Below, one piece after another: positions 28,758-44,436 of a stretch of 64,000 bases of DNA. Origin of the DNA: Bacilli bacterium (lineage in GTDB: Bacteria > Bacillota_I > Bacilli_A > ML615J-28 > CAG-698); the NCBI GenBank assembly GCA_050174575.1, contig JBFXJT010000007.1, forward strand, positions 6,648 to 70,647, given 5' to 3'. Below the pieces are notes generated by a model. That model ran no database searches and was not told the DNA's origin. It worked only from the letters and a program-made list of their open reading frames with translations. The position numbers and the translations under genes are program-made. How positions within the stretch are numbered: position 1 is the first letter of the stretch; every line of letters starts with the position of its first letter.

Positions 28758-29284
28758 AAAAAATAATATTATTCCTCCTTTTTGTTAGTTTACTTGCTAT
28801 CGTTGGTTGTACAATTGGTGAAAACACAACTGTTAAAATGTCTTTAAAGTCTGGTATCGATACAGTTGAAATTAATAGCGAATATGTTGATCCAGGTGTC
28901 AAAGCAACTTTTGGTTTATTGAGCCTTGATGTCAAGGTCGTTTCTTCAACCGTCAACACCCAAATGCTCGGGGCTTATGAAATTGTTTATGAAGCTAGTT
29001 ATAACGGTATTTTTAAAACAATTACACGAATAGTGACTGTAATTGATGATACTGCCCCTATTATTTACTTAAATCCTGGTGTTGACACTATTTTAATCGG
29101 TGAAAATTGGGTTGACGCTGGTGTTACGATAACCGACAATAGCAATGTTGTGATTGACCCCATCATAACTGGAGAAATTAACAATCAAGTTGTTGGTGAT
29201 TATGAAATTGTTTATCAAGCAAAAGACTCAAGCAACAATATTAATCAAATTATCCGTATAGTTCATGTTATTGATAACGAATAA
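28754..29284 (+). CDS. Lipoprotein with two Ig-like DUF5011-type domains.
   Basis: Lipobox LLAIVGC. Two repeats of SGIDTVEIN..YVDPGV / PGVDTILIGENWVDAGV. Overlaps the protease stop (ATGA). Confidence 0.6.
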   Translation: MKKIILFLLFVSLLAIVGCTIGENTTVKMSLKSGIDTVEINSEYVDPGVKATFGLLSLDVKVVSSTVNTQMLGAYEIVYEASYNGIFKTITRIVTVIDDTAPIIYLNPGVDTILIGENWVDAGVTITDNSNVVIDPIITGEINNQVVGDYEIVYQAKDSSNNINQIIRIVHVIDNE

Positions 29285-29289
29285 AAAAA

Positions 29290-29306
29290 GGTCCGATTTT
29301 CGGACC
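29290..29306. terminator. Bidirectional intrinsic terminator between convergent genes.
   Basis: GGTCCG-ATTTT-CGGACC hairpin flanked by A-run and T-run. Confidence 0.6.
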
Positions 29307-29309
29307 TTC

Positions 29310-30254
29310 TCACATTAAATTATTTATTTCATCTAAGGTAGGAAGGGCATCAATTGCCCCTTTTTTTGTTGTCACTAACGCGCCTGAAATATTACCAAAC
29401 CGTAAAATTTGTACAATTTGCTCATCAGTTAAATCATCAATATCTAATTTGTCTAAATTGACTAAAACACCAGCATAGAAAGCGTCTCCTGCACCCGTTG
29501 TATCAATTGGTTTTACAATAATTGATGGTACTTTGAGCAAGCGCCCATGGTGAAAAAAAACAGAGCCATCTTTTCCCAAAGTCAAAAAGACTATTTGGTT
29601 TTTTGTTGTGAGTTTCATCAATCCTTTTTCTAAATCTGTTTCACCAGTAAATAAAATTAATTCGTCTTGAGATATTTTTAAATAATCTGCCTTTTTTGCG
29701 TAATATGTATAAATGTTAATTGCTGTTTGCGCATCAACGAATAAATCATCGCGATAGTTAACATCAAAACTTAATGATTTATGGCTTTTTTTCACAAGTT
29801 TAATAATGTGATTTGCAAGTTCTCTTCCTTTTGGTTCGCTTAACAGTAATGAACCAAGATGAACAATATCAGCTTGTTTGATGGCTTCTAAGCTGGTTTT
29901 GGGGATATGAAAATCCGCTTGGTTTTTGTGATAAAAACTAAAGTGGCGTTCGCCATCATCGTCATTCGCAACAAATGCTAAAGTAGTATTGTGAAATGGA
30001 TCTTCCGTAATTAATGTTTTAGAAAAAGGAATTTTAGATGCAAAATCAATTAAAAATTGACCCATCAAATCAACTCCGACATTTCCAACGAACTGAACAT
30101 TTCCTCCATACTTAGCAATGCCACAAGCAACATTAAAAGGAGCTCCACCCGCAAATGTTTGATAAGACATCGTGTTATTAACTTTTTGACCTATTAAATC
30201 AACAAGGATTTCGCCAATACAGACTATCATTTGTTTCTCCTTAAGTTGTTTCAC
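29310..30254 (-). CDS. PfkB-family sugar kinase, probable fructokinase.
   Basis: 314 aa with the C-terminal DTTGAGDAFYAGVL anion-hole motif. Last gene of the fructan locus. Confidence 0.75.
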   Translation of the reverse strand: MKQLKEKQMIVCIGEILVDLIGQKVNNTMSYQTFAGGAPFNVACGIAKYGGNVQFVGNVGVDLMGQFLIDFASKIPFSKTLITEDPFHNTTLAFVANDDDGERHFSFYHKNQADFHIPKTSLEAIKQADIVHLGSLLLSEPKGRELANHIIKLVKKSHKSLSFDVNYRDDLFVDAQTAINIYTYYAKKADYLKISQDELILFTGETDLEKGLMKLTTKNQIVFLTLGKDGSVFFHHGRLLKVPSIIVKPIDTTGAGDAFYAGVLVNLDKLDIDDLTDEQIVQILRFGNISGALVTTKKGAIDALPTLDEINNLM

Positions 30255-31203
30255 CTAAAATTAAATTAGTTGGAACAAAAATGAATTCTTCCGATGTTTC
30301 ATGATTAATTCGTAATATCAGTTGATTAACAATGGCAACGGCAAGAGCTTCAATATCTTGTTTGACAACAGTAAATTTAGGATGTTGTAAAATCTCATCC
30401 ATGACTCCATCAAATGCAATGATTTTGATTTCTTCAGGAACTTTTTTTCCAAGTTGAGTAGCTATCTGAAAGCAAGTATTGGCAAAGGTATCACTTTGGG
30501 CAAAAATTCCGTCCAATGTTGGGTTCTCTTGCATAAATTGTTTTGCAACAACAAATTCTTCACCATGATATACATTCTTATAACAAGAAGTCGGAACCAT
30601 ATTATATTTTTGCATTACATCCAAATAAGCAAAGTAACGTTTTTGTGTTTCTGAAGGAGCAGTGGACATACCACCAATATAGCCAATGTGATGACACCCT
30701 TTTTGGACAAGATGCTCAATGGCTTTAAAAGTACTTTCATAATTATCACTTGTAACACAAGGAACGTTGTCGAGATGACGATCCAAAGTCACTATGTTTA
30801 GCCCTTTGAAATCAACATCCTGATATAAGTGATTGGTGATGAAAATAATCCCGTCGACTTGTCCTGTCTTAATCATATTCAATAAATGAACTTCTTTATC
30901 TCTTTTTCCTTGAGAACTGACAATAATCATTTTGAAACCTTTTTTATACAAGTAATCCTCAATGTAAAAAGCAATTTTACTAAAGAAAACGTGACTAATG
31001 GTTGGAACAAATAGGGCAACTAATCCAGATCTTTGTGCCTGTAGATTTCGCCCTAATTGATTAGGAATGTAATTGAGTGCTTTAATTGCATCTTCTATTT
31101 TTTTTCGCGATTCTTCAGATACATAACCGTTTTTATTAATGTATCGCGAAACAGTTCCCATGCCAACCCCAGCTCGTTTTGCAACTTCTTTCATTTGGGC
31201 CAA
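30241..31203 (-). CDS. LacI-family transcriptional regulator.
   Basis: N-terminal HTH MKEVAKRAGVGMGTVSRYIN and a periplasmic-binding-protein-like effector domain. Confidence 0.85.
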   Translation of the reverse strand: MAQMKEVAKRAGVGMGTVSRYINKNGYVSEESRKKIEDAIKALNYIPNQLGRNLQAQRSGLVALFVPTISHVFFSKIAFYIEDYLYKKGFKMIIVSSQGKRDKEVHLLNMIKTGQVDGIIFITNHLYQDVDFKGLNIVTLDRHLDNVPCVTSDNYESTFKAIEHLVQKGCHHIGYIGGMSTAPSETQKRYFAYLDVMQKYNMVPTSCYKNVYHGEEFVVAKQFMQENPTLDGIFAQSDTFANTCFQIATQLGKKVPEEIKIIAFDGVMDEILQHPKFTVVKQDIEALAVAIVNQLILRINHETSEEFIFVPTNLILGETT

Positions 31204-31290: not shown

Positions 31291-31339
31291 AAAGTAGTTC
31301 TTTCATGGATGATTAACATCATTTTGAAAGAACTACTTT
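31291..31339 (-). other. Long interrupted stem-loop between the CBM lipoprotein gene and lacI.
   Basis: Perfect 15-nt arms AAAGTAGTTCTTTCA / TGAAAGAACTACTTT, with a nested ATGAT-taac-ATCAT hairpin in the loop. Weak U-tract. Confidence 0.4.
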
Positions 31340-31353
31340 ATTATTAAACAACC

Positions 31354-34098
31354 TTATCCCATTTGATTAGTAATTGTTTGCCATGGAATATTGTGTGTTC
31401 GTTCGACAGTCCATTGATCGCTCGTATCTTTACTGTAAAGAGTTACGGTATCAAAGCCATTAGCAATATCTGGAGTAACTGCATAGTATGTTACAACTTC
31501 ATCAAAGAAGGCAACAGCCCAACCAGCTACTTCAATATCACAAAGTTCCAAATACAATTCCTGGCCTAAGTAAGCACTTAAATCAATAAAATATGTCCCC
31601 ATATCTGCCCATGATCCACCTAAATCTACACTTGGGAAATTGGTATCGCTAAAACGATTTTGTTTATATAAACCAATTTGTGTCCCGTCAGCTAAATAAA
31701 CTTTTACAGCTGCAGCATTAGCACCCATTTTTAAAGAAATAAAGCCTGTTCCGTGAAGAGTAAAATTGGTTGAGCGTAATGAATATTGCTCGCTTTCCGC
31801 AACACCTGAAGTCCATCCGTCAAAGTGATAATCACCGCTTTGGTTATATGGTAATTTTTCATTCCAATAATGTGTTTGACTTATAACAGCATTAACTGTA
31901 ACTTTTTCAGAAGTCCAACCAGTCATATCACCAGTTTCAAAACCTCCATTGATAATTAAACCATTATTGCCCATTTCCCATTCGATATTAACATCTGGTT
32001 CTTGGACACTGTCTTTTGTAGAACCAGCAACAGTATCAAAGCCATTTGCAACATCAGGAACAGTTGTATGATAGAAATTAATATCATCAAAGAAAGAAAC
32101 TGCCCAACCAGCTGTAGCTGGATCATCAATCAATTCAACATAAACTTTTTCGCCTAAATAAGCCGATAAGTCCGCAAAGTAACGTGTCATGGTCGCTAAA
32201 CGTCCACCATTAGCAAGGTATGGGAAATCAAAATCTTTGAAACGATAATTTGTGAAATAACCGATGACTGTTCCATCTTCTTTTACAACACGAACAGCGG
32301 CAGCTTTTCCACCCATCATGAAGGAAACCCAACCAGTACCAGATAATGTAAATAATCCAGAGCGTAAAGTATAACCAGCTGATTCCACGCTTGTTGCTGT
32401 CCAACCATCAAAATGGTAATTTCCTTGTTGGTTATAAGCAATCATTTCGCCCCAGAAAGTTTCTGCGCTTAAGGCACCATTAATTATATCGCCAAAAACA
32501 ACACTCCAACCAGTCATATCACCTGTTTCAAATCCACCGTTTGCGACATTGGTATCGGCAGAAACGACAACATTGAATGTGCTCGTAACTGTTTCGCTTT
32601 CATAAGTTGTCCCATAATGAACAACATATGTTCCTTCTTGATCAAAATCAAAAGCATCAAATCCTGTTGTAAACTCTGTTTCGCCTAAAACAACTTTTGT
32701 AATGACAGCTGGTACAGCCGTTTCGCCATAAGTTATCACGACATCAGCCATTAATGCTGTCAAGTTGTAATCATTTACCATCGCCGTTACAAAACCTTCT
32801 GCTTCAGTTTCAATCATTAAGGCAGGTAATTCAAATGGATAATCATAATTTGTATAGTATTCTTGTAAATGAGCTAGCGAATTATATGAATCGGTGTATG
32901 TTTCTGCCATAATTGCTTGGAAAGTAGATTTCATTAAAGCTTTTACTTCAACTTCCGTCATACTAACACGGAAATCATCAGCATTGATGAAAGCAAATCC
33001 GCTACTTGGATTGTTGTCCACAATCGAGATGTACAACACATCGCCAAGGTATTCGGATGCATCAACATAAACGCGACGTAATGTCAATGGTAATCCTGGA
33101 TCGTTAAATGTTGTATTAGTGACTTGGATTAATTCTGCATCTGTTGTTCCGTCATTAATAGAAATATAACAATTTGTTGGCCCAGAACCAATCATAAAGG
33201 AAATCCAACCATCACCGGCTAATGTGAATTTTGTAGAACGGATTGCTCCAACTGCTGATTCGGCAGTAGCTGCATTGTTATTTCCGTCTAAATAATAATC
33301 ACCTTCACCATAAACCATACGATCAGTCCAATAAAATTGTGATGTTGGAACGACAACTGTTCCACCAAATGCTGTACCGCTTAATTGTTTCCAACCAGTT
33401 AAATCACCTGTTTCAAACCCACCATTTGTAATCGTTGTTGATGTTGGGTCTTCTTCAAATTCTGGTTCTCCATAAGCTTCAATTTGGGCATCACGTTCTG
33501 CTTGCATAGCTGTAACTTCTGCTTCAGTCAAACAAACTACAAAATCATCTAAATTGACATAGCCATAATCATCGGTGTTATCACTGTCAGTTACTCTGAT
33601 ATAAATGATTTTATTCAAATGTGCTGATAAATCAACAACTCTTCTGATCATTTGATCAGTAATAAATGGTTCATCATAATCAGTATTCGTTATTTTTAAC
33701 AAAGCCGTGGCATTGTCTTTTTCAAAGAACTCAACAAAAATCTTATCTTGATTTTTTGCAGCTCCCATTTTAAAAGCAATTTTACCAGTTCCAGTTAATT
33801 TAAAGAAAGAAGATGTTAGTGTACCAACCATTTGTTGAGTACCACCATCCGTTCCACTGAACCAAAATTCTCCTGTTTTATCTACAGTAATTCCATTTAC
33901 TTTTAGATCATTAACGATACCGCGAGGACTAAAAGCCGTTTCTGTTTTTGTCCATCCCGTCCAAACTTCTGCTGTTCCAACTTCAAATCCACCGTTTGTA
34001 ATTTGGGTTGGATACTCTTCTTCTTTACCACATGCTGCTAACAATAATAAAGAGAGTGCTAGCATAAATACAAAGGTAAAACGCCATGTTTTTTTCAT
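31354..34098 (-). CDS. Surface lipoprotein built of four tandem CBM-like beta-sandwich modules (putative fructan-binding protein).
   Basis: Lipobox LLLAAC-G. Four approx 200-aa repeats each starting (I/V)xNGGFE(T/V)G(D/T)xTGW and ending Y(G/V)xxDD(F/I). The same module forms the N-terminal domain of the adjacent canonical GH32. Confidence 0.65.
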   Translation of the reverse strand: MKKTWRFTFVFMLALSLLLLAACGKEEEYPTQITNGGFEVGTAEVWTGWTKTETAFSPRGIVNDLKVNGITVDKTGEFWFSGTDGGTQQMVGTLTSSFFKLTGTGKIAFKMGAAKNQDKIFVEFFEKDNATALLKITNTDYDEPFITDQMIRRVVDLSAHLNKIIYIRVTDSDNTDDYGYVNLDDFVVCLTEAEVTAMQAERDAQIEAYGEPEFEEDPTSTTITNGGFETGDLTGWKQLSGTAFGGTVVVPTSQFYWTDRMVYGEGDYYLDGNNNAATAESAVGAIRSTKFTLAGDGWISFMIGSGPTNCYISINDGTTDAELIQVTNTTFNDPGLPLTLRRVYVDASEYLGDVLYISIVDNNPSSGFAFINADDFRVSMTEVEVKALMKSTFQAIMAETYTDSYNSLAHLQEYYTNYDYPFELPALMIETEAEGFVTAMVNDYNLTALMADVVITYGETAVPAVITKVVLGETEFTTGFDAFDFDQEGTYVVHYGTTYESETVTSTFNVVVSADTNVANGGFETGDMTGWSVVFGDIINGALSAETFWGEMIAYNQQGNYHFDGWTATSVESAGYTLRSGLFTLSGTGWVSFMMGGKAAAVRVVKEDGTVIGYFTNYRFKDFDFPYLANGGRLATMTRYFADLSAYLGEKVYVELIDDPATAGWAVSFFDDINFYHTTVPDVANGFDTVAGSTKDSVQEPDVNIEWEMGNNGLIINGGFETGDMTGWTSEKVTVNAVISQTHYWNEKLPYNQSGDYHFDGWTSGVAESEQYSLRSTNFTLHGTGFISLKMGANAAAVKVYLADGTQIGLYKQNRFSDTNFPSVDLGGSWADMGTYFIDLSAYLGQELYLELCDIEVAGWAVAFFDEVVTYYAVTPDIANGFDTVTLYSKDTSDQWTVERTHNIPWQTITNQMG

Positions 34099-34115: not shown

Positions 34116-36164
34116 CTATTTTACAATAATGTCATATTTGCTTATTTGCTTTAATATAGAACTTCCCCCAACAGTGAAAAATTCAATACCAGTGTCATTT
34201 AAGCCTGGGTAAACATTTCCAGTCATCGTAATATAACCATCATTAATAAAGACTTCAACACTGGAAACGTCTAAAAAGATTCGTAATTTTAAAATCCCAT
34301 TATTTAAGGAAACGTCAGCACTCCTAGTTTGACGGTTGATTTCCGCACCACTGATTGTTTCACCTGAATTTCCTCGATCAAAGATAACTGTTTGTGAAAG
34401 AGCATCATAATAAACTAATGTTTCGTTTTCTGTTCCTTTAAACAGTTTCACCCCAACTTTAGATGCAGATCCAACTTCAATTTCAAGTTCCAGTTCAACC
34501 GTCTTACCAGAAATTTGTGGGAGGACTAAGTTTCCATTAATCGTTTTATTTTGATAACTGACTTCATTTTGACGATAATTTTCGATTTCTCTAACTGGGG
34601 CTTGATAAATATGGCCATCTTTATAGGTCAATTCTCTTGGCAAGGTATAAGCACCAACCCAGTTATGCGCTTGTGTGACTAAAGTACGATCCCACATTTG
34701 CATCCATGCTAGCATAATTGTTCGTCCATCAGGCGTTATCATCGTTTGAGCAGCATAGAAATCAAATCCACCGTCAAATTCTTGAAATTCATCATAATTG
34801 AATTTCCCCGTTTGATAATCAATTCCACCAACCATATAAACTACCGAGTGAATATTTTCAAATTTCGTCTTGTCTCTTGGTAAATTTTGTGGACTAACAA
34901 TTAAAATCTCTTGATTATTTAACTCAATAAAATCTGGGCATTCATAAACACCATTTAACTGTAAGAAATTTGGTGCTTGAGGATTGTTATTGTTCATGAC
35001 TTTGCCAACATAATCCCAACTAGTTAAATTGCTCGAACGATAAAGGACAACCATGCCATAGCCATTTGCTTTCGTACCGATCAAACAATAATAATATCCA
35101 TCATGATAAAACACTTTTGGATCACGAAAATCAGCTGTTGATACACCGATTGGTACCTCAATTGTAGAAATAACTGGATTACGGGTTAATTTTTCAAAAT
35201 TAATCCCATCTTCGGACACTGCTAGATTTTGTGTTTGTTGATTATTGGCTACGCCAGTATACATGAGGTATAATTTCCCATCTTTTTCAATAGCCGTCCC
35301 ACTAAAGCACCCAAAATCTTGATCATATTTTTGATCGGGAGCTAAAGCTACAGGCTGTAATTCCCACTTAACAAAATCCTTCGTTGTTTGATGCCCCCAA
35401 TGCATTGGGCCCCAACTGCTGGCATAAGGGTTAAATTGGTGAAACAAATGACCTTCACCATTAAACCAAATTAATCCGTTGGGATCATTACTCCATCCTA
35501 TTGGAGATGCAGCATGATAAGTATGACGGTAAGTTGGGTTTACAGTATTAAGATTTTCAAGAACATATTGATATGCATCGTGTACTTTTCCCACTTGATC
35601 TTCAACTCCTTGATAATTAACGATAAAATCGTCAACATTGATGTAATTATAGTTATCGGTATTATTATCATTATCAATAATTTTTATTTGAACTGTTTTT
35701 CCAATATGACTACTTCCATCCAATATGACCCGATGGAGAGTATTTGGACTGCTTTCATCAAAATTTAAATTAGCGCGTGTTGCTAATTCATTCCCTCTTG
35801 AGTCAATTAAAGAAACATAACATAAGTCGACATTTGCTCCACCGCTAATCAAAAATCCGATTTTTCCATTCCCTTTTAATTGAAATTTTTCACTTAACAT
35901 AAAACCGGTTTTACTTAAGCCTGCTTTTTTACCATAAAAGAGAAATTCTCCCGTTTGGTTAAAGCGATTGCCATTTTCATCTTTGTCATTAAGAACAACA
36001 CCAGCATCAGTAAAAGCATCACCGTCTTCTTCCCAGTTTTTTAAGGTACCACTTTCAAAACTAGCGTTTAAAAAGGAATATTCGCCATCCACAGTTTGAT
36101 TACATCCTCCTAATATCATGATGAAAGAAAGAAGGATAGCAATCAAAAGCCATTTATTCTTCAT
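34116..36164 (-). CDS. Extracellular GH32 beta-fructofuranosidase/fructanase lipoprotein with an N-terminal CBM-like module.
   Basis: Lipobox ILGGC-N. Canonical GH32 catalytic motifs GWSNDPNG, FRDPKV, ECPDF. C-terminal GH32 beta-sandwich. Confidence 0.85.
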   Translation of the reverse strand: MKNKWLLIAILLSFIMILGGCNQTVDGEYSFLNASFESGTLKNWEEDGDAFTDAGVVLNDKDENGNRFNQTGEFLFYGKKAGLSKTGFMLSEKFQLKGNGKIGFLISGGANVDLCYVSLIDSRGNELATRANLNFDESSPNTLHRVILDGSSHIGKTVQIKIIDNDNNTDNYNYINVDDFIVNYQGVEDQVGKVHDAYQYVLENLNTVNPTYRHTYHAASPIGWSNDPNGLIWFNGEGHLFHQFNPYASSWGPMHWGHQTTKDFVKWELQPVALAPDQKYDQDFGCFSGTAIEKDGKLYLMYTGVANNQQTQNLAVSEDGINFEKLTRNPVISTIEVPIGVSTADFRDPKVFYHDGYYYCLIGTKANGYGMVVLYRSSNLTSWDYVGKVMNNNNPQAPNFLQLNGVYECPDFIELNNQEILIVSPQNLPRDKTKFENIHSVVYMVGGIDYQTGKFNYDEFQEFDGGFDFYAAQTMITPDGRTIMLAWMQMWDRTLVTQAHNWVGAYTLPRELTYKDGHIYQAPVREIENYRQNEVSYQNKTINGNLVLPQISGKTVELELEIEVGSASKVGVKLFKGTENETLVYYDALSQTVIFDRGNSGETISGAEINRQTRSADVSLNNGILKLRIFLDVSSVEVFINDGYITMTGNVYPGLNDTGIEFFTVGGSSILKQISKYDIIVK

Positions 36165-38544
36165 CCAGTGTTACCTCTTCATAAATTGATTTCATTGTTT
36201 TGACAGTCATTTGGTTTATGTTGACTTCACCATTTTCTGAAAACAAGAGTAACCCTAAAGATGAAGGATCGGGATAAATACGGGCAGAAATAGCTTTTTC
36301 ATTGTTGAAAAAAGCTTCAATTAAAGAACGGTCGAGGTAAATATCCATGACTAAAATATTATTATCTAAAACAAATGAGCCATAGAAATTTCCTGAAATG
36401 TTTTGGTTATCGCTTAATGCACCACTTAAACCTGTTTTTACTCCTAAGGTTTTTAATGTCTCATTAAAATAAAGCGTTGTTTCTTCTAACGTAGTGGCGT
36501 TCTTGCGAACTTTTATTCCAAACAAAGTAGCATTAATGTTTTCAAATTCTACGTGAATATAAAGCATGTCACCCTTTACATCAGTTAATAGGGTGTTGGC
36601 TTCACTGATGGACTTATTGCTCATTGTGACTAATGTCTCTTGGTAATAGTCTTCTAGTGCGGATACTGGGCGAATCATTAAATCCGTTCCGTCACTGTTT
36701 AAATAAACTTCTCTAGCCAGTCCAACACAGTTTGCCCACCCAGATAAATAGACATCCGATGGTTTCCTTTGATCCTGCATGATACTGAAAAGATAAGTTT
36801 TTTGGGAAACTGGATCAATAAAACCTGAAGGGCCAGTAAAAACATTATTACCATAATCAAGTAGTCTTGGAGTCGTCCCAAAAGCAGGATCGGGAATAAA
36901 ACGACCAGCAGTTTTATCGAAAGTACCAAGCCAATAATAAATATCATTATCGGCACTGTCAGCAGGAGCAGGACTAATAATCAACATATATTTTGTAATT
37001 GTTTTACTTTCGTTTGTTACGGGAAGCATAATCGGAAGTTCCCAAACAGGCCCTAAATCGGCAGGTTGATTGACTTGTTCGTACAATTGCCCTTTGTAGG
37101 TCCAATTATTAAACGAGTCATCCTTTGTTGTATAAAGTAAAGCTGTCCCACCAGTATTGATTTTGGTACTTGATGATCCAATTAGTAAAAACCAAGTATC
37201 TTCTTCTTGCCAAACATGGGCATCACGAAATTGTCCCGATGCTCCTTGACCAGCTACTTGTTTAATAGCTAATTCATCATCGATTACCCATTCTGTTAAG
37301 TAGGGATCGGTTGGATCTTTGGGCCTAGCAATACCAATGTTTTGATTGCTTATCAAACCATCTTTTTGATAAGAGTCATTTCCAGCAGTAAATAGTAAGA
37401 CGGGAATGCCTTCATTATCATAAGTTACACCACCGCTCCATACACCATCCGGACAAACGGAATCAGCTGTTGGGGTGATAACTTCTTTTAATGGACGCCA
37501 ATTAACCATATCATCACTGATTAAATGCCCCCATCCAATATTGCGAAAATAAGGGCCAAACATATTGAATTGGAAAAATAAGTGATAATACCCATTGTAA
37601 TACATTGGAGCATGAGGTTCATTCATCCAGTGTTGATAAGGACCACCATGATATTGTGTTTTATAAAAATCATCTGTCAGAATATTTTGTAACCAAATAT
37701 CCTCAAAAGCAATTTCCGGAACTGTCTTACTTTCGTAAACTTGCTTTACATCATTTGCTTGTAAACTGGCTTCATAGACTTTTAACTCATCAATCAATCC
37801 ACTTACCATATTTAAAGTTGCCGTAGCATTCGAACCTGGATAACTATTACGAGCAATGAGGAAGGGTTCGCCCGACGCTCCCATAATGGTTGCCCCTTCG
37901 AAAAAATAATCAATGTTGACTAATTCGCCATTTAAATATATGGCCATTTCGCCTTGATCACCATCGAAGGTTGCCACAATATGATTCCATTCATATTTTT
38001 TAAGGGGATTACCTTCATCCCATAAAGTTAACCATCGGTCACCAAGACCTACTTGAAAGCTCCAAGAACCATGGCGTTGATAGCCAAGAATAAATCCTTG
38101 GTTTTCACTTTTATTGTGTTGAGAAACAATCGCTGTTAATTTATCAGTTCCATTGTCTTTGGCATTGGGATCGTCCCACTCAAAGGCCCTTGGAGCAATC
38201 CAAACACTAATTGATAATTTTGAACCGCGAATTTTTAAATCTTCTTCTTGATAACGGATAAAATTAGAATATCCATCAAACAATAAGGAGCCATTATTGA
38301 TCCCTGTTGCGCGCCACTGTGGATCCTCAGGATTTTCCATAAAGCTAGGGTTTGTGAAAACATAAGCAACAGTCGCTGGAGCTTCGTTTTTCGAAGCATC
38401 ATTCACTTTGTTGCCCTGACCTTCATCAAAAGTTAAATGTAACAATAAATCTTTTGTATAAGGGTCGCTCTTTCCACATGCATATAAACTTGAAACAATG
38501 AATAATAGGAAAAAAATAGTCAATAGTTTTTTTGTTATCATCAT
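36154..38544 (-). CDS. Lipoprotein: LamG-like lectin domain plus divergent GH32-like beta-propeller plus GH32 C-terminal beta-sandwich.
   Basis: Lipobox LYAC-G. Motifs HWMNEPHA (replacing WMNDPNG), FRDAHVW (RDP-like), VWELP (replacing WECP). C-terminal DRSLIEAFFNN...ARIYP matches the GH32 C-terminal domain. Confidence 0.7.
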   Translation of the reverse strand: MMITKKLLTIFFLLFIVSSLYACGKSDPYTKDLLLHLTFDEGQGNKVNDASKNEAPATVAYVFTNPSFMENPEDPQWRATGINNGSLLFDGYSNFIRYQEEDLKIRGSKLSISVWIAPRAFEWDDPNAKDNGTDKLTAIVSQHNKSENQGFILGYQRHGSWSFQVGLGDRWLTLWDEGNPLKKYEWNHIVATFDGDQGEMAIYLNGELVNIDYFFEGATIMGASGEPFLIARNSYPGSNATATLNMVSGLIDELKVYEASLQANDVKQVYESKTVPEIAFEDIWLQNILTDDFYKTQYHGGPYQHWMNEPHAPMYYNGYYHLFFQFNMFGPYFRNIGWGHLISDDMVNWRPLKEVITPTADSVCPDGVWSGGVTYDNEGIPVLLFTAGNDSYQKDGLISNQNIGIARPKDPTDPYLTEWVIDDELAIKQVAGQGASGQFRDAHVWQEEDTWFLLIGSSSTKINTGGTALLYTTKDDSFNNWTYKGQLYEQVNQPADLGPVWELPIMLPVTNESKTITKYMLIISPAPADSADNDIYYWLGTFDKTAGRFIPDPAFGTTPRLLDYGNNVFTGPSGFIDPVSQKTYLFSIMQDQRKPSDVYLSGWANCVGLAREVYLNSDGTDLMIRPVSALEDYYQETLVTMSNKSISEANTLLTDVKGDMLYIHVEFENINATLFGIKVRKNATTLEETTLYFNETLKTLGVKTGLSGALSDNQNISGNFYGSFVLDNNILVMDIYLDRSLIEAFFNNEKAISARIYPDPSSLGLLLFSENGEVNINQMTVKTMKSIYEEVTLDEE

Positions 38545-38555
38545 CTTTTTCCCTC

Positions 38556-40904
38556 CTAGATTGTTTTCATTTTAATTACTTGCAAAACATCAACCATAAT
38601 TTGACCATCAGCAAATAACGACATTTCCGATGCATTGTTATAAACCATCGCCGTCAATGTTTGATACCCATTGATGTATATTTCAATCATTGCTCCATCA
38701 ATAAATATTTCTAAATCTAATACTTCCCCAGGAAGAAGAGAAATTCCTCCCCCAAAGATTCCTTTCACAACACTATTTCCAGAATTAGTTGTATCAATTG
38801 AAATAAATTGATCGATTGCGTTATAATTTAGGACTGTCTTTCTCCCTAGTTGATCTTCTTTTAAAGTAAGTCCAAAATTTTGAGAATTTTCATTAGTTAA
38901 TTGAACATGCAAGTATAACTGATTGCCGACCACTGATGCTAAAGCTTGGTTTGCAAATTCAATATTAGTATCTTTTTTATCAACAATGACATCAGTTTTT
39001 AAATTATTTAATTCGTTTAAAGGGGTAATTTTTAAACTGCCGGCATCATCAAGTGACAATTGACGAGGAATACCAGCAGTATGGGCCCATCCTGCATCAT
39101 AATCTTGATGACCATTTCGTTGGCCTTGAATAATGCTACAAATTAAAACACGTCCTGTTAGGGGATCCGTCGAAACCGTTGGCCCCGTAAACACATTGTT
39201 CCCAAAATCCATTAATTTTGGATCTTCATGTTCAGGAATAAAAGTCATCGTTGTTTTATCGAAGTCCCCCAAATAATAGTAAATATCATTATCCGCACCA
39301 GAACCCGCGGGAGAAAACGCAAATATATACTTAGAAACTGTTTTATTAGCGTTCGTTATTTTCGCAAGATTTACTAATTCCCATGTCGTACCCATATAAT
39401 TATGATAAACAGAAGGCATGAACAGTTCGCCTTGATAATCCCAATTCAAAAAAGAATCGTCTTGAGTTGTAAATACTTGGGCAGTTCCTTTATTATCATA
39501 ACGAGCAGATCCGACAAACATGTAGTAAGTTCCATCTTCAAAATAAATATTTGGATCACGAAATTCGTTTGTTTTGGCCATTGATGGTGTTGAGACGGCT
39601 ACTAATTGATCGCTTACATCCCACTCCGTTAAATCAGGATCGCTTAAATCTTTCGGTATTGCAATGGCGATATTTTGATTGCTCCATTGCCCAAAGCTTT
39701 TGGCATCATCACCGGCTGTAAAAAATAATACGGGTGTTCCATCAGCTTTGTATGACGCTCCTCCCGACCAAATACCATCAGGACAAACAGAATTTTTCAT
39801 AAGAATAATGGCTTCTTTCACATTGCGCCAATTGACCATATCAGGACTTACCCAATGACCCCATGCAATTTGCCGCCAGTATGGCCCAGTAAGATTAAAT
39901 TGATAAAACAAATGGTAATTTCCATTGAAATAAAACAAAGCATGTGGTTCATTCATCCAATGTTGAGGTGGTGAAGCATGATATTGAGGTTTGTATATAT
40001 CATCATCTAGCAATTCGTCATTAAGCCAAGCATCTTTAAAATCAATGGCTTTCATGCGGTTTTTTTGTACAAAACTGTTGTGATAGGCTATTATATCCTC
40101 TTCTTTAATTGATGCTTGGTAAATTTTAAGTTCGTCCATTAAACCATTGAACATATTAATTTCATAAAGGCCTGTTTTTTGGGGAACCTGGCTTTTTCCG
40201 ATATACAAAGATGTATTCGCAGCAATAATCTCGCCAAATACATCATTGTGAAAATTAATTATTTCCCCGTTTTTGTATATCCCCATAAATCCGTTTGTTC
40301 CATCAAAAACAAAGGTAAGATGATTCCAAGTATAACGGTCAAGATCATTCCACTCATTCCAAAGTTTAACCCAGCGATCGCCAAGTCCTATTTGAAAGGA
40401 ATATTCACCATATTTATGCATGCCGATAACAAAACCTTGATTTTCTGACATGATGTATTGCCCTAAAACAACTTGCAAATGCTCCGTTCCGTTAACAACT
40501 GCTCCTGGAACATCCCATTCAAACATCCTTGGGCTAATGAATAAATCAATAGTTAAGTTAGGACCGCTAATTTGAATATCCTGATAATCATATTTTATAT
40601 AATTCGAATAACCATCAAAGGCTAAACATGCACCACTAATTGCTGAATTTGTAATCCAAGTTGGATCAATCGATTGCTTGTATTCAGCATCCGTGAAGAC
40701 ATATTCAATCGTGGCTTTTGTCATTGTTGTTTGTTCAGTAAGTTCGTTACCTTCATTTTCATCAAAAGAAGTTGCAAATATTAATTTATCTTGATAAGGG
40801 TCATGATAATCGTGATAATAAATTGCATCCTCCTCTGTTTTTGCACAACCAATAAAGGCCATCATTAAACAAAAAACTGTGATAATTAATAAACCTTTTT
40901 TCAA
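38556..40904 (-). CDS. Paralogous LamG plus divergent GH32-like lipoprotein.
   Basis: Lipobox FIGC-A. Motifs HWMNEPHA, FRDPNIYF, TWELV. The paralogy is shown by matching blocks in both N-terminal LamG regions (e.g. LAFDGYSNYIKYDYQ / LLFDGYSNFIRYQEE, NGTEHLQ / NGTDKLT) and both GH32-like cores (e.g. YHLFYQFN / YHLFFQFN, DMVNWR in both). Confidence 0.7.
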   Translation of the reverse strand: MKKGLLIITVFCLMMAFIGCAKTEEDAIYYHDYHDPYQDKLIFATSFDENEGNELTEQTTMTKATIEYVFTDAEYKQSIDPTWITNSAISGACLAFDGYSNYIKYDYQDIQISGPNLTIDLFISPRMFEWDVPGAVVNGTEHLQVVLGQYIMSENQGFVIGMHKYGEYSFQIGLGDRWVKLWNEWNDLDRYTWNHLTFVFDGTNGFMGIYKNGEIINFHNDVFGEIIAANTSLYIGKSQVPQKTGLYEINMFNGLMDELKIYQASIKEEDIIAYHNSFVQKNRMKAIDFKDAWLNDELLDDDIYKPQYHASPPQHWMNEPHALFYFNGNYHLFYQFNLTGPYWRQIAWGHWVSPDMVNWRNVKEAIILMKNSVCPDGIWSGGASYKADGTPVLFFTAGDDAKSFGQWSNQNIAIAIPKDLSDPDLTEWDVSDQLVAVSTPSMAKTNEFRDPNIYFEDGTYYMFVGSARYDNKGTAQVFTTQDDSFLNWDYQGELFMPSVYHNYMGTTWELVNLAKITNANKTVSKYIFAFSPAGSGADNDIYYYLGDFDKTTMTFIPEHEDPKLMDFGNNVFTGPTVSTDPLTGRVLICSIIQGQRNGHQDYDAGWAHTAGIPRQLSLDDAGSLKITPLNELNNLKTDVIVDKKDTNIEFANQALASVVGNQLYLHVQLTNENSQNFGLTLKEDQLGRKTVLNYNAIDQFISIDTTNSGNSVVKGIFGGGISLLPGEVLDLEIFIDGAMIEIYINGYQTLTAMVYNNASEMSLFADGQIMVDVLQVIKMKTI

Positions 40905-40916
40905 ATTACCACTTCC

Positions 40917-41843
40917 TTACTTCAATCCAGTAAAAGCGACACCTTCAATAATATATCTTTGAGCAAAAATATAAACTAAGGCGATCGGAATCGTACTAAA
41001 TGTTAAGGATGCCATAACTAAAGAAATATCTTTCGGATTAAAATTATTAATCAACTGTAAAAATACTTGCAAAGGTTGTTGCACTGGATTAGAGAACATT
41101 AATTGTGCAAACACATATTCGTTCCAACTTCCCATAAATGTAAAAATAGCGACTGTTGCAAATACTGGCAATGATAGAGGAACAATAACCTTAAAGAAGG
41201 TTGTTAATTTACTAGCACCATCAACATAAGCTGCTTCTTCTAATTCTTTAGGAATTCCCAAGAAAAAAGCCCGAAACATGAAGATATAAAAGGGACTAAC
41301 AATACCTGGTAATAAATAACCAATGACTCTCAATTCTGCTGTCAATAATCCCAAATTTTTTAAAATAACATACAAAGGAACAATAGAAGTCTCAACAGGA
41401 ACAATTAATATTAAAATAATGATACTAACGATGGTTTTATGACCAGGAAAAACAAAACGAGACAACGCATAACCGGCAAGTGAGTTAACTAATAAAACAC
41501 CTGTAATCGAAATTGTTGCATAAATGACACTGTTAAGAATGGATCTTCCAAAATTATCAAAAGTTGCAAATAAATTTTGATAAGATAAAAACCATTTGCT
41601 GATATTCCAAGTAGCTGGTAAAAAGGTTTTTATGGAATTGATGGAGGCATACACTTCTGCTTGAGTTTTAAAACTATTCGAAAGCATCCATACTACAGGA
41701 AATAAAAAGATAATGCATAGCACGATTAAAAAAATTCTAAATAATGTTTTCGCAATTATTTCACGAACTGAGTAATGTCTTTTTTGTTTTTTAGGCAATT
41801 GTAGTATTGATAATGGAATGTTTTTTCGCTTCTTTTTCATCAT
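40917..41843 (-). CDS. Carbohydrate ABC transporter permease (MalG-like).
   Basis: Six TM helices. EAA loop EEAAYVDGASKLTTFFKVIVP. Start taken at the internal MMKKKRKN to avoid a long overlap. Confidence 0.8.
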   Translation of the reverse strand: MMKKKRKNIPLSILQLPKKQKRHYSVREIIAKTLFRIFLIVLCIIFLFPVVWMLSNSFKTQAEVYASINSIKTFLPATWNISKWFLSYQNLFATFDNFGRSILNSVIYATISITGVLLVNSLAGYALSRFVFPGHKTIVSIIILILIVPVETSIVPLYVILKNLGLLTAELRVIGYLLPGIVSPFYIFMFRAFFLGIPKELEEAAYVDGASKLTTFFKVIVPLSLPVFATVAIFTFMGSWNEYVFAQLMFSNPVQQPLQVFLQLINNFNPKDISLVMASLTFSTIPIALVYIFAQRYIIEGVAFTGLK

Positions 41844-41850
41844 TATCACC

Positions 41851-42783
41851 TCAAATTGTGTTATCTTTCTCAAAGACTTTTCTTAAGGTTAAAGCAATCG
41901 TAGCCATAAAGATGGTATAAATTAAAGCGATGGCACTTGAATAACCAACATCCCGGAAATTAATACCTTGCAAATAAATATAATAAGACATCGTTAAGGT
42001 CCGGTCAATCGGACCTCCTCTTGTCATAATCATTGGTTGGGTAATCAACCTAAATGCCCCAATCATCATTGTAATCAGCACAAATGAGAATGTAGGCTTG
42101 ATGCTAGGAAGGGTAATCCGCCAGAATTGTTGGAATTTATTCGCTCCATCGATGCTTGATGCTTCATACAGCTCTTTTGGAATATTTTTTAGTGCTGACA
42201 AGAAAATTAACATTTGGTAACCTGCTCCCTGCCAAGCAGAAATCATGACAATTAAATCCATGGCTTGTTCGGGATCGCTTAAGAAAAGTTGTCTCGATAA
42301 ACCAATAGTTTCAAGGAGGGCATTTATCAATCCATCTTGCTCATTCAATAAGTTAATCCATAACATCGATGTGACCGCCAATGACAACATTGTTGGCACA
42401 AAGAATGCCCATCTAAAAAAGGTATTTCCCTTCATTGGCTTATTTAAAATCAAGGCTAACAAAAGAGCTGCACCAAGTTGTAACGGAATAACTTTTAAAA
42501 CAAATTCCATTGTGTTTTTAAATGCTTGAAGAAGAATTTTATCTTGAAAGGCATTTTTAAAGTTTGCAAAACCAATAAAAGTTGTATTATTTAACTCTAA
42601 TAAATTGGCATCTGTAAACGAATAGGCTAGAGAAATAACAATGGGCATAATGACAAATATAATTCCTAAAATAACAGCAGGAAGCAAAAAACTCCAACCT
42701 ATAATCGTATCAGAAGTTCGGTATGTTTTCCCAAATAATTTAAAATACATTCGGGTATTTGGTTTTTTTACAGATCCTACCAT
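41851..42783 (-). CDS. Carbohydrate ABC transporter permease (MalF-like).
   Basis: EAA loop ELYEASSIDGANKFQQFWRITLP. Six TM helices. Confidence 0.85.
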   Translation of the reverse strand: MVGSVKKPNTRMYFKLFGKTYRTSDTIIGWSFLLPAVILGIIFVIMPIVISLAYSFTDANLLELNNTTFIGFANFKNAFQDKILLQAFKNTMEFVLKVIPLQLGAALLLALILNKPMKGNTFFRWAFFVPTMLSLAVTSMLWINLLNEQDGLINALLETIGLSRQLFLSDPEQAMDLIVMISAWQGAGYQMLIFLSALKNIPKELYEASSIDGANKFQQFWRITLPSIKPTFSFVLITMMIGAFRLITQPMIMTRGGPIDRTLTMSYYIYLQGINFRDVGYSSAIALIYTIFMATIALTLRKVFEKDNTI

Positions 42784-42793
42784 TTTTCACCTC

Positions 42794-44134
42794 TTAATTG
42801 TCAATTTGAACGACTTGAGTGTCAATGTAATCTTCTAAATTGTATTCTGTTGTTCCATTCATTGTTTCGATGTATTCAATAATTTTACTGTAGCTACTAC
42901 TTACTTTAGGATAGTTGATCATTTTTGGTCGGGGAGTAGCAATTTCTTGTAAAATAGTTGCTAATGAACCTAAAGCTCCCGTTTGGAATCCTGTTAAATC
43001 ATTCAAAAGTGATTTATGGGTTGGAAATGTTCCAATTGATTCATACATTAATTGGCTTCCAGTAACTCCTGTTATATAAGCAACAGCAATCGCTGCTGAA
43101 GCAGGATCGGATGAATTAACCGTTACTCCAAATCCCCATGAACCACAACCAGCAACCGGCGTTCCTTTTGTAGTTTCGTCTTCATAAACAGGCATCGGCA
43201 TAATTCCATAACTTGGAATAAAAGTATTATAATTTTTCTTAATCGTCGAAATATTCCATGGTCCGTGAATTTCAAAAGCGCATTCTCCACCTGCTAAAGC
43301 ATCTGTATTGCTGCCATTGTAAACCCAAGGTTCGCCATCATCATCGGGGTTGAAGAACATTTCTAACATTTTAATTCCTTTAATAGAATTAGAAGAGTTA
43401 AGGGCACCATCAACGACTTCATTGGCGCCAAAGAAACTCCCACCTGAAGAATATATTAATGATGAATATAAATACATGACACCTTCATCGCCACCAAATC
43501 CTAAGTTCAATTTAATTCGATATTCAAGGTTGGCAGCTTTTAGGGCAACCATTGCTTCCATAACATCAAGCCAAGACCAAGGATTAGTAACTGTCCCAAA
43601 ATCTTCTTCATCATAACCAACTTGCTTTAATAAATCCTTATTAAAATACATTCCAGTTGGCGCATCCATACCGGATAAAGCATATAATTTTCCATCAATC
43701 GTACTTTGTTCGATGACGCTGTCAACATAACTCGAAGTAATATCAGTTGTTAAATATTGATCAATCGGTGCTAAAATGCCCGCATCAGCATAAGCAGCTA
43801 TATTAGGGGCATCAACAGCAACAATGTCAGGAAGTCCTCCTGATAGAATTTCCGCGTTGATTGCTGTTTGTAAAGTATCAGAACTGTTTTTAAATTCTAA
43901 TTTCATTTTTAAAATTCTTGTTCCATCAGCAGTTTTTAATTGTTGTTCATTAAACAATTCAGCAATTGTGGAATAAACAATCCCTTCATCTTCTGCTTCG
44001 GATTTATGAACCCAAACCTTAATTACTTTTACCTCGTCCGTATCTTCATCTTCTGCTGGACCACAACCAACAAACACCAAGAAACTAAGCAAAAGTACCA
44101 TAACACTTAAAAAAAGTTTTCCAAAATTTTTCAT
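42794..44134 (-). CDS. Extracellular sugar-binding lipoprotein of the ABC transporter (family 1 SBP).
   Basis: Lipobox FLVFVGC-G followed by an acidic linker. 446 aa, typical of oligosaccharide SBPs. No ATPase gene in the locus. Confidence 0.85.
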   Translation of the reverse strand: MKNFGKLFLSVMVLLLSFLVFVGCGPAEDEDTDEVKVIKVWVHKSEAEDEGIVYSTIAELFNEQQLKTADGTRILKMKLEFKNSSDTLQTAINAEILSGGLPDIVAVDAPNIAAYADAGILAPIDQYLTTDITSSYVDSVIEQSTIDGKLYALSGMDAPTGMYFNKDLLKQVGYDEEDFGTVTNPWSWLDVMEAMVALKAANLEYRIKLNLGFGGDEGVMYLYSSLIYSSGGSFFGANEVVDGALNSSNSIKGIKMLEMFFNPDDDGEPWVYNGSNTDALAGGECAFEIHGPWNISTIKKNYNTFIPSYGIMPMPVYEDETTKGTPVAGCGSWGFGVTVNSSDPASAAIAVAYITGVTGSQLMYESIGTFPTHKSLLNDLTGFQTGALGSLATILQEIATPRPKMINYPKVSSSYSKIIEYIETMNGTTEYNLEDYIDTQVVQIDN

Positions 44135-44293: not shown

Positions 44294-44436
44294 CTAGTTG
44301 CTTTTATTTTAAACCACCCCGTTTTTTTTGTCAAGCGTTTTCTTTTATTATTTTTTAAAAATAAAAAATACTATGGCGTTTCCCATAGTATCTAAAAACT
44401 GATTGTTATTCTCTTCTTATTTTCTTAATAATTTAA

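Follow-up and report, generated by a model that had tools for sequence, protein, structure and literature searches.

Two tandem LamG-GH32 lipoproteins with glutamate at the nucleophile position, probable surface endo-fructanases of a Bacilli bacterium

What a glycoside hydrolase of family 32 (GH32) does once the aspartate in its nucleophile position has given way to glutamate is the question raised by two adjacent genes, P1 and P2, in a 64,000-nucleotide stretch of a Bacilli bacterium genome (contig JBFXJT010000007.1 of assembly GCA_050174575.1; the whole stretch is called the window below). Both genes encode lipoproteins in which an N-terminal LamG domain precedes a GH32 module (Table 1), and both were noticed in a preliminary description, which took the Asp-to-Glu change and the added LamG domain as signs of a distinct GH32 subfamily and left the biochemistry open, naming a fructotransferase, an endo-acting levanase or inulinase, and an activity on a non-fructan furanoside as candidates. 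The analysis presented here leads us to regard P1 and P2, with moderate confidence, as lipid-anchored surface retaining GH32 endo-fructanases, and most probably as endo-inulinases (EC 3.2.1.7).

The assignment to CAZy family GH32 is given by PF00251 and PF08244, which are matched well over their cut-offs in both proteins (Pfam E-values for Laminin_G_3, Glyco_hydro_32N, and Glyco_hydro_32C are 6e-18, 4e-54, and 3e-22 in P1, and 3e-13, 2e-57, and 2e-17 in P2). An AlphaFold model of P1, computed with an alignment of 44 homologs, has a pLDDT of 91 and a pTM of 0.87, and its best Foldseek matches in the Protein Data Bank (PDB) are all GH32 enzymes, with a target-normalised TM of about 0.8. The paralogs are 41% identical to each other, and each starts with a lipoprotein leader, which ends in ...SLYAC23 in P1, where C23 is invariant in the 44-sequence alignment, and in ...FIGC20 in P2 (Cys20 at 40845-40847). 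The public gene call for a counterpart of P2 (247-2556 of L015, a contig that carries an identical P1) has 769 amino acids (aa), implying a start at an internal ATG (Met14, 13 codons past the TTG) that has no ribosome-binding site (RBS) and by which the signal peptide is lost; this deposited start is probably wrong, since the upstream TTG has an RBS and is followed by a proper lipoprotein leader.

The motifs around the predicted catalytic residues read WMNEPHA, FRDA, and WELP in P1 (E309, D441, and E502) and WMNEPHA, FRDP, and WELV in P2 (E319, D450, and E509). In a phmmer search of the PDB, HWMNEPHAP of P1 was paired with NWMNDPNGP of the Arabidopsis cell-wall invertase 2AC1, FRDA with FRDP, and WELP with WECP, and the triad columns pair up in the same way when P1 and P2 are aligned by MAFFT with six GH32 enzymes of known structure. 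Because WMNEPHAP aligns with WMNDPNGP of 2AC1, the Glu stands in the true nucleophile column, and the possibility raised at the outset, that the nucleophilic Asp lies elsewhere and WMNEP is not homologous to WMNDPNG, does not hold. By these alignments, both proteins have the complete GH32 triad, with Glu in place of Asp, Leu in place of Cys, and, in P1, RDA. The preliminary description was thus accurate about the architecture and approximate length (790 aa) of the two lipoproteins, the Glu in the nucleophile position, the RDA/RDP and WELP/WELV motifs, and the canonical nature of the GH32 enzyme encoded downstream. The C-terminal string DRSLIEAFFNN...ARIYP, which it gave for both paralogs, is literally present in P1, whereas P2 has diverged here (DGAMIEIYING...AMVYN), yet still scores as a GH32 C-terminal domain.

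The Glu is not drift, as the preliminary description had already argued, and not an error either, because E309, R440, D441, W501, and E502 (P1 numbering) are invariant in the 44-sequence alignment, and WMNEPH was read in all of the 120 closest database homologs. An exhaustive HMMER search from P1 through 1.84 billion cluster representatives returned 2606 proteins at E <= 1e-10, a count that takes in other GH32 proteins too. Nearly all of the best 150 of these 2606 that span the region carry W-[MTA]-N-E-[PA]-[HY], then FRD[PA], and then WE[LM]P at comparable spacing; counted from the nucleophile, the Asp follows at +114 to +144, in most cases +125 to +137, and the acid/base Glu at +171 to +218, in most cases +184 to +203; WMNEPNG is present in a few members of this clade, and WEMP is common in it. 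The named members come from Actinobacteria (Streptomyces, including S. rochei, Kitasatospora, Saccharothrix, Microbacterium, Agromyces, and Actinotalea), Firmicutes (Paenibacillus, Cohnella, Priestia, and Pumilibacter, with the cultured P. muris as carrier of P0034), Proteobacteria (Janthinobacterium and Pseudoduganella), Bacteroidia, Balneolales, and haloarchaeal megaplasmids. A tblastn search of a plasmid collection likewise found haloarchaeal members, none of them characterized.

A function for such enzymes is suggested by the literature, in which Glu as the GH32 nucleophile, within WMNEPNG, is the signature of endo-inulinases (PMC5245892; PMC6042768; PMC3829992), and the Glu-nucleophile GH32 enzymes of the surveyed publications are endo-inulinases, all inulin-specific (PMC5245892; PMC5984348; PMC3829992). 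In INU2 of Aspergillus ficuum, known from the crystal structures 3RWK and 3SC7, the triad is E43/D176/E233, with Glu43 in YWMNEPNG and Asp176 in RDP, and the acid/base Glu233 is followed by Val (EVPDM) and no Cys (PMC5245892; PMC6042768). INU2 acts in endo mode to give inulotriose and inulotetraose, and P1 and P2 resemble it in the Glu nucleophile, the retained Asp of the RD motif, and the residue other than Cys after the acid/base Glu, although INU2 has no N-terminal LamG domain and is about 21% identical to P1 (Foldseek). By their motifs, P1 and P2 carry the endo-inulinase signature, namely a Glu nucleophile in WMNEP and a non-Cys residue behind the acid/base Glu. To call the biochemistry an open question was hence an overstatement, as the Glu nucleophile together with the loss of Cys already marks endo-inulinases (INU2 and EnIA, the latter discussed below). 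The E-to-D back-mutation that had been proposed for P1 and P2 has already been made in INU2, where the E43D mutant kept about 5% of the activity with an unaltered product pattern (PMC3829992).

The second point of comparison is EnIA, the endo-inulinase of Arthrobacter sp. S37. Its triad is E323/D460/E519, all three residues being essential by mutagenesis, with a lowered kcat in the E323A and E519A mutants and no activity in D460A; N322, Q339, and R459 bind the substrate, the gene has 2439 bp (about 813 aa), and the products range from inulotriose to inulopentaose (PMC5984348; PMC7545266). EnIA residues N322, E323, Q339, R459, D460, and E519 parallel N308, E309, Q325, R440, D441, and E502 of P1, and the EnIA spacings from the nucleophile (Q +16, D +137, E +196) sit within the range of the clade. 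A nucleophile at position 323 means that about 300 residues precede the propeller, as they do for E309 of P1 and E319 of P2, so that P1 and P2 match EnIA in both the extension and the residue spacing. A review prints the EnIA motifs in the garbled form "WMNDEPNGL / RDF / ECMP", with '519-ECMP-522', which is apparently most simply read as WMNEPNGL and E-M-P. EnIA differs in its published WMNEPNG motif, as opposed to WMNEPH in P1 and P2, and in being a secreted actinobacterial enzyme, whereas P1 and P2 are lipoproteins. Taken together, EnIA very probably belongs to the same clade, with a presumably homologous N-terminal region. A 2005 J. Biochem. paper is said to have described an N-terminal domain that is unique to EnIA and needed for catalysis.

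No Arthrobacter sequence was recovered in the searches for EnIA itself. A scan of genome contigs with a back-translated WMNEPNGL pattern gave 9 loci, none from Arthrobacter, comprising four chance matches, one short GH32 fragment from Spirochaetaceae, four INU2-type genes of Planctomycetota (one cut by the end of the stored locus), and the locus L003 discussed below. Protein searches seeded with two actinobacterial clade members (P0235 and P0328) likewise showed no Arthrobacter protein among the matches listed. Three clade members are named 'endo-inulinase' by their submitters (HCT76620.1 and HCU50243.1 from metagenome-assembled genomes (MAGs) of Micromonosporaceae, and AFC29062.1 from Paenibacillus mucilaginosus 3016), names that were most plausibly transferred from EnIA. 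S. rochei genomes hold two members of the clade, and S. rochei E87 is reported, in a work cited in PMC5984348, to make an inulotriose-forming inulinase.

Are P1 and P2 then bacterial relatives of INU2? A neighbor-joining tree, computed from 326 columns for 60 catalytic domains with 100 bootstraps, indicates otherwise; its references were the INU2 sequence and five structures with an Asp nucleophile, all recovered from the PDB alignments. The 39 LamG-associated domains with a Glu nucleophile (Glu-type domains) all fall into a single clade that adjoins plant invertase (the LamG clade; bootstrap 74), while INU2, a fungal ortholog, and relatives from Planctomycetota form a separate clade (bootstrap 98) next to the exo-inulinases; P1 and P2, which fall into different subclades of the LamG clade, thus lie outside the INU2-type clade. 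The PDB scores agree, as the family profile gives 193 bits for plant invertase 2QQU and 131 bits for INU2 (3RWK), P1 itself gives 146 bits with 2AC1 and 92 bits with 3RWK (phmmer), and an INU2 ortholog scores 325 bits against an exo-inulinase. Since the two clades are separate in the tree and in these scores, the Asp-to-Glu exchange arose at least twice in GH32. The nucleophile and the Cys change together: of 43 domains with Glu, 39 have a non-Cys residue, and of 17 with Asp, 15 have the Cys. Each time Glu was acquired, the Cys behind the acid/base Glu was thus replaced as well. The likeness of P1 and P2 to INU2 is therefore probably functional and convergent, with the Glu acquired independently. 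The conjecture that a conserved Asp-to-Glu change and an N-terminal LamG domain define a distinct GH32 subfamily is borne out by this clade, and of the candidate functions put forward for it, the endo-acting inulinase or levanase is best supported, while the fructotransferase and the non-fructan furanoside found no support.

The Planctomycetota MAG loci found in the motif scan (L005, L007, and L009, with a truncated copy in L006) carry INU2-type GH32 genes with the motifs WMNEPNGL, FRDP, and GWEVAD, in which the nucleophile lies right behind a probable signal peptide and a long C-terminal tail has LamG-like motifs; by their sequences these genes represent a second, separate bacterial Glu-nucleophile lineage. 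In L003 (NYXK01000007.1, 'MAG: Deltaproteobacteria bacterium'), an open reading frame (ORF) with Ser/Thr-rich linkers joins an exo-inulinase-like module to an INU2 ortholog that is roughly 70% identical to Aspergillus INU2 (728 bits against 3RWK), and this sequence is probably a fungal contamination of the MAG. A0A2D5SDX0, a Deltaproteobacteria protein of 1295 aa that is counted among the extracellular endo-inulinases of bacteria in a published survey (PMC10390659), may be the same kind of sequence.

The strongest argument for endo action outside the literature comes from the genomic setting. In six lineages, genes of the LamG clade lie in fructan-utilization loci, beside genes for GH32 enzymes with an Asp nucleophile (Asp-type), sugar importers, and fructokinase. 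The Firmicutes locus (L010-L012) encodes a solute-binding protein (SBP), two permeases, PfkB, the Glu-type LamG-GH32 protein, a 499-aa Asp-type GH32, a LacI regulator, and an ABC ATPase, together with a homolog of a repeat protein of the window (see below). In Streptomyces rochei, two tandem Glu-type LamG-GH32 genes are accompanied by PfkB, a 488-aa Asp-type GH32, permeases, an SBP, and LacI. The Janthinobacterium locus has LacI, an SBP, two permeases, a 325-aa GH32/GH43-like protein, the Glu-type LamG-GH32 protein, an ABC ATPase, and a TonB-dependent receptor, with a 557-aa Asp-type GH32 upstream. A Bacteroidia polysaccharide-utilization locus combines SusC, SusD, a Pfam SGBP_levan-binding match, and the Glu-type LamG-GH32 protein, with a 502-aa Asp-type GH32 one gene on, and a Haloterrigena megaplasmid carries three GH32 genes, ABC transporter genes, a TrmB regulator, and a carbohydrate kinase. 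Motif checks in these loci bear out the Glu-type and Asp-type assignments, and in most loci, as judged by eye, it is usually the Glu-type protein that has a hydrophobic, signal-peptide-like N-terminus and usually the Asp-type partner that does not. This is a familiar layout, in which an endo-enzyme is secreted, the oligosaccharides are imported, and an exo-enzyme works inside the cell, though it does not decide between inulin and levan.

In several polypeptides, moreover, a Glu-type LamG-GH32 module is fused to an Asp-type GH32 module, and the presence of both types in one chain favors complementary over redundant activities. Giant chains of 1200-2100 aa (P0126, P0127, P0133, P0156, P0164, and the product of L018 14200-18414) join the Glu-type LamG-GH32 module to a canonical WMNDPNG GH32. 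The Firmicutes loci L010-L012 share one exact 797-aa Glu-type LamG-GH32 sequence (P0067), which is indexed in 1499 assembly-collection blocks and gave no match in the plasmid collection. Phage-type integrases and TnpV flank this fructan locus, with BREX genes in one contig, which suggests a mobile element that spreads inulin utilization among metagenome-derived bacteria.

The locus in the window has the same general components. On the minus strand, the genes for the solute-binding lipoprotein, two permeases, P2, P1, an Asp-type GH32 lipoprotein, and a 914-aa repeat lipoprotein follow one another closely, neighbors overlapping or being spaced by no more than about 20 bases, and a gap of 150 bases, with a perfect 15-nt inverted repeat inside (31291-31339), separates the last of them from the LacI and PfkB genes. 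In the proposed pathway, P1 and P2 would cut internal beta-2,1 fructosyl bonds in long-chain fructan outside the cell, with E309 (P1) or E319 (P2) as the predicted nucleophile, D441 or D450 as the transition-state stabilizer, and E502 or E509 as the acid/base, and with the LamG lectin domain probably helping to hold the polymer or shaping the cleft. The resulting oligosaccharides would be trimmed by the neighboring Asp-type GH32 lipoprotein, presumed to be the exo-fructosidase partner, and/or imported via the co-transcribed ABC transporter; the PfkB kinase would phosphorylate released fructose, and the LacI-type repressor would control the whole locus.

Table 1. Coordinates of P1, P2, their predicted functional parts, and the surrounding genes and signals in the window
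Feature	Position	Strand	Remarks and basis
P1, 796-aa lipoprotein: LamG, GH32 propeller, GH32 beta-sandwich	36154..38544	-	ATG start; ORF list, Pfam, PDB alignment, AlphaFold, Foldseek
P1 lipoprotein signal peptide MMITKKLLTIFFLLFIVSSLYAC	38476..38544	-	lipobox Cys23 at 38476-38478; read from sequence
P1 N-terminal LamG / ConA-like jelly-roll domain	37735..38448	-	residues about 33-270; Laminin_G_3 match 104-266
P1 GH32 five-bladed propeller	36667..37650	-	residues 299-626; Pfam, PDB alignment, family alignment
P1 GH32 C-terminal beta-sandwich	36199..36621	-	residues 642-782; Pfam
P1 predicted nucleophile E309	37618-37620	-	alignment with solved GH32
P1 predicted transition-state Asp D441	37222-37224	-	alignment with solved GH32
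P1 predicted acid/base E502	37039-37041	-	alignment with solved GH32
P2, 782-aa lipoprotein, P1-like architecture	38556..40904	-	TTG start, RBS-like AAGGAAGTGG upstream; ORF list, Pfam
P2 GH32 propeller	39024..39980	-	residues 309-627; Pfam, motif alignment
P2 predicted triad E319, D450, E509	39948-39950, 39555-39557, 39378-39380	-	motif alignment
Asp-type GH32 lipoprotein, 682 aa	34116..36164	-	WSNDPNG / FRDP / YECP; scrB_fam 428 bits, over cut-off
914-aa lipoprotein, four ~190-aa repeats (NGGFETGD...GW...DDF)	31354..34098	-	ORF list, Pfam, repeat comparison
ABC sugar importer: solute-binding lipoprotein; permeases	42794-44134; 41851-42783, 40917-41873	-	Pfam SBP_bac_1, BPD_transp_1
LacI-family regulator	30241-31203	-	domain match
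PfkB sugar kinase, presumed fructokinase	29310-30254	-	domain match
Best sigma-70-like promoter match, upstream of binding-protein gene	44306..44334	-	11/12; consensus match only; number of such sites in the region equals shuffle expectation
Terminator-like hairpin at locus end	29285-29311	-	sequence match only

The 914-aa repeat lipoprotein matches no Pfam family above cut-off. The Asp-type GH32 carries one domain of this ~190-aa repeat type at its N-terminus (residues 1-200; 32% identity, E 2e-23), and a 719-aa homolog of the repeat lipoprotein, 50% identical, occupies the equivalent position in the unrelated fructan locus L010; the protein therefore looks like a conserved accessory and is a candidate fructan-binding module or surface glycan-binding protein. 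Adjoining the locus on the plus strand (26073-29284) lies a gene for an 894-aa subtilase with Listeria-Bacteroides repeat (Flg_new) domains and a bacterial Ig-like domain, followed by a gene for a 176-aa lipoprotein with two copies of the subtilase's Ig-like domain; the two products are taken to be surface proteins.

The role of the LamG domain was approached by comparison. A phmmer search of the PDB with the LamG region of P1, at E up to 10, returned only 4QVS, 4DQA, and 3AIH and no similarity to CBM66. For a model of the isolated domain (pLDDT 77), the nearest PDB folds were the HCN lectin domain of clostridial neurotoxin, domain 4 of AbnA (an extracellular GH43 arabinanase), and pentraxins, and no CBM66 entry was recognized among the top 50 Foldseek matches; an assignment to CBM66 was rejected on both counts. 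The model confirms a generic ConA-like lectin fold, which would be compatible with polymer binding, and the strongly conserved motifs DGYSN and PRxFE suggest a specific role. P1 residues 62-84 and 236-244 lose confidence in the isolated model relative to the full-length one and may pack on the propeller, a comparison that is confounded by the shallower alignment (16 vs 44 sequences) and is not relied upon.

Several observations weigh against an endo-inulinase assignment of P1 and P2. Their motif is WMNEPH, whereas the published endo-inulinase signature is WMNEPNG, and their clade is nearer to plant invertases and exohydrolases and to Bifidobacterium exo-enzymes than to INU2, whose entry 3SC7 ranks 16th in the Foldseek search. 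The searches made here brought up no biochemically characterized member of the LamG clade, and we infer the placement of EnIA in this rather than in the INU2-like clade. The Asp-type partner in the window is itself a lipoprotein, so that the logic of an endo-enzyme outside and an exo-enzyme inside the cell is less clean here than elsewhere, and beta-2,6 fructan stays in play as a substrate because the neighbor of the Bacteroidia gene matches a levan-binding SGBP family. A more far-reaching form of the endo-fructanase assignment, which we advance only tentatively, would make the LamG clade an independent endo-fructanase lineage that converged with the fungal endo-inulinases through the Asp-to-Glu and Cys-to-aliphatic exchanges, with the LamG domain as an integral wall of the cleft and with tandem paralogs that differ in linkage or chain-length specificity (e.g., inulin versus levan or graminan).

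That P1 and P2 are instead endo-levanases or broad endo-fructanases, which cut beta-2,6 or mixed and branched fructans (levan, graminan), or that the paralogs split the linkages between them, is considered unlikely. Beta-2,1 and beta-2,6 specificity are indistinguishable from sequence alone, the paralogs are old and divergent and belong to different subclades, and tandem Glu-type pairs recur in S. rochei, all of which would fit such a division, as would the position of the Bacteroidia gene beside the SGBP_levan-binding match. This position is presumably that of the surface endo-levanase BT1760 in the levan locus of Bacteroides thetaiotaomicron. Like the proposed role of P1 and P2, that of BT1760 is that of a surface-attached endo-fructanase feeding oligosaccharides to an importer, and the locus of the Bacteroidia clade member is reminiscent of it in having SusC, SusD, an SGBP of the levan-binding type, and a second GH32. 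However, BT1760 is beta-2,6-specific, has no LamG domain, and has a reported nucleophile that is Asp (numbered Asp62 in PMC5245892 and Asp41 in the structure paper), which stands in the much-diverged motif GFVGDPMP while ECP is kept (PMC5245892). The family profile matches only the C-terminal domain of BT1760 (6R3R, 37 bits) and gives 108 bits for the endo-levanase LevB1 (9H8I), against 185-193 bits for plant and Bifidobacterium GH32 enzymes, and the inulin specificity of the Glu-nucleophile enzymes in the surveyed literature likewise speaks for endo-inulinases.

It is improbable that P1 and P2 are ordinary exo-acting beta-fructofuranosidases or exo-inulinases that happen to have Glu for Asp, with the LamG domain as a binding module like the CBM66 of SacC-type exo-levanases. 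Their closest solved relatives are indeed exo-acting (plant invertase, fructan 1-exohydrolase, and Bifidobacterium beta-fructofuranosidase), and extracellular enzymes of Anaerostipes that combine LamG/CBM66 with GH32 were active on kestose and nystose (PMC7833758). SacC-type and Anaerostipes enzymes share with P1 and P2 the extracellular location, a ConA-like lectin module, and action on fructans, but they have the Asp, the NDPNG motif, and the exo mode, and their lectin module is CBM66, to which the LamG domain of the window has no detectable similarity, as described above. The Anaerostipes proteins were accordingly rejected as characterized relatives and belong to a different family, since they keep the Asp and NDPNG. 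In addition, an Asp-type GH32, if not more than one, is already encoded in each of the loci examined, so that a second exo-enzyme would be redundant, and both the fused polypeptides and the signal-peptide-like N-terminus that is usually found on the Glu-type rather than the Asp-type enzyme are at odds with this explanation. A fructotransferase (a difructose anhydride (DFA)-forming, lyase-like enzyme or a transfructosylase) or an enzyme of a non-fructan furanoside is very improbable indeed: GH32 does include levan fructotransferase (4FFF-4FFI), and the His of WMNEPH and the Leu or Met after the acid/base Glu are clade-specific changes near the -1/+1 subsites, but levan fructotransferase, to which P1 and P2 are not closely similar, has an Asp nucleophile (D54N mutant entries 4FFH/4FFI) and scores only 38 bits against the family profile, the neighboring genes (fructokinase, Asp-type GH32, and a sugar ABC importer or SusCD) indicate that fructan is broken down to support growth, and no DFA hydrolase gene was seen in the loci examined.

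With P1 and P2 read as surface endo-fructanases, the Glu nucleophile and the lost Cys are features already known from endo-inulinases, and the two proteins add to a clade that is very large but poorly annotated, is found in Firmicutes, Actinobacteria, Proteobacteria, Bacteroidia, and haloarchaea, and most probably includes EnIA. Its members are usually annotated as "GH32 C-terminal domain-containing protein" or "sucrose-6-phosphate hydrolase", and a published bioinformatic survey recognized 8 endo-inulinases among 16,002 bacterial GH32 sequences (PMC10390659). The practical value of the finding is modest; if taken to mark surface endo-fructanases, the W-x-N-E-P-H / WE[LM]P pattern would allow better prediction of primary degraders of long-chain inulin among gut and soil bacteria. 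If the tentative view of an independent, convergent lineage were true, P1 and P2 would equip a Gram-positive gut bacterium with a complete surface fructan-breakdown system. The points of interest are the double substitution, which two GH32 lineages apparently reached by convergence, and the possible division of labor between tandem paralogs, and a structure of the LamG and Glu-type GH32 architecture, for which none has been solved, would show what the LamG domain contributes and why Glu was gained and Cys lost together in both lineages.

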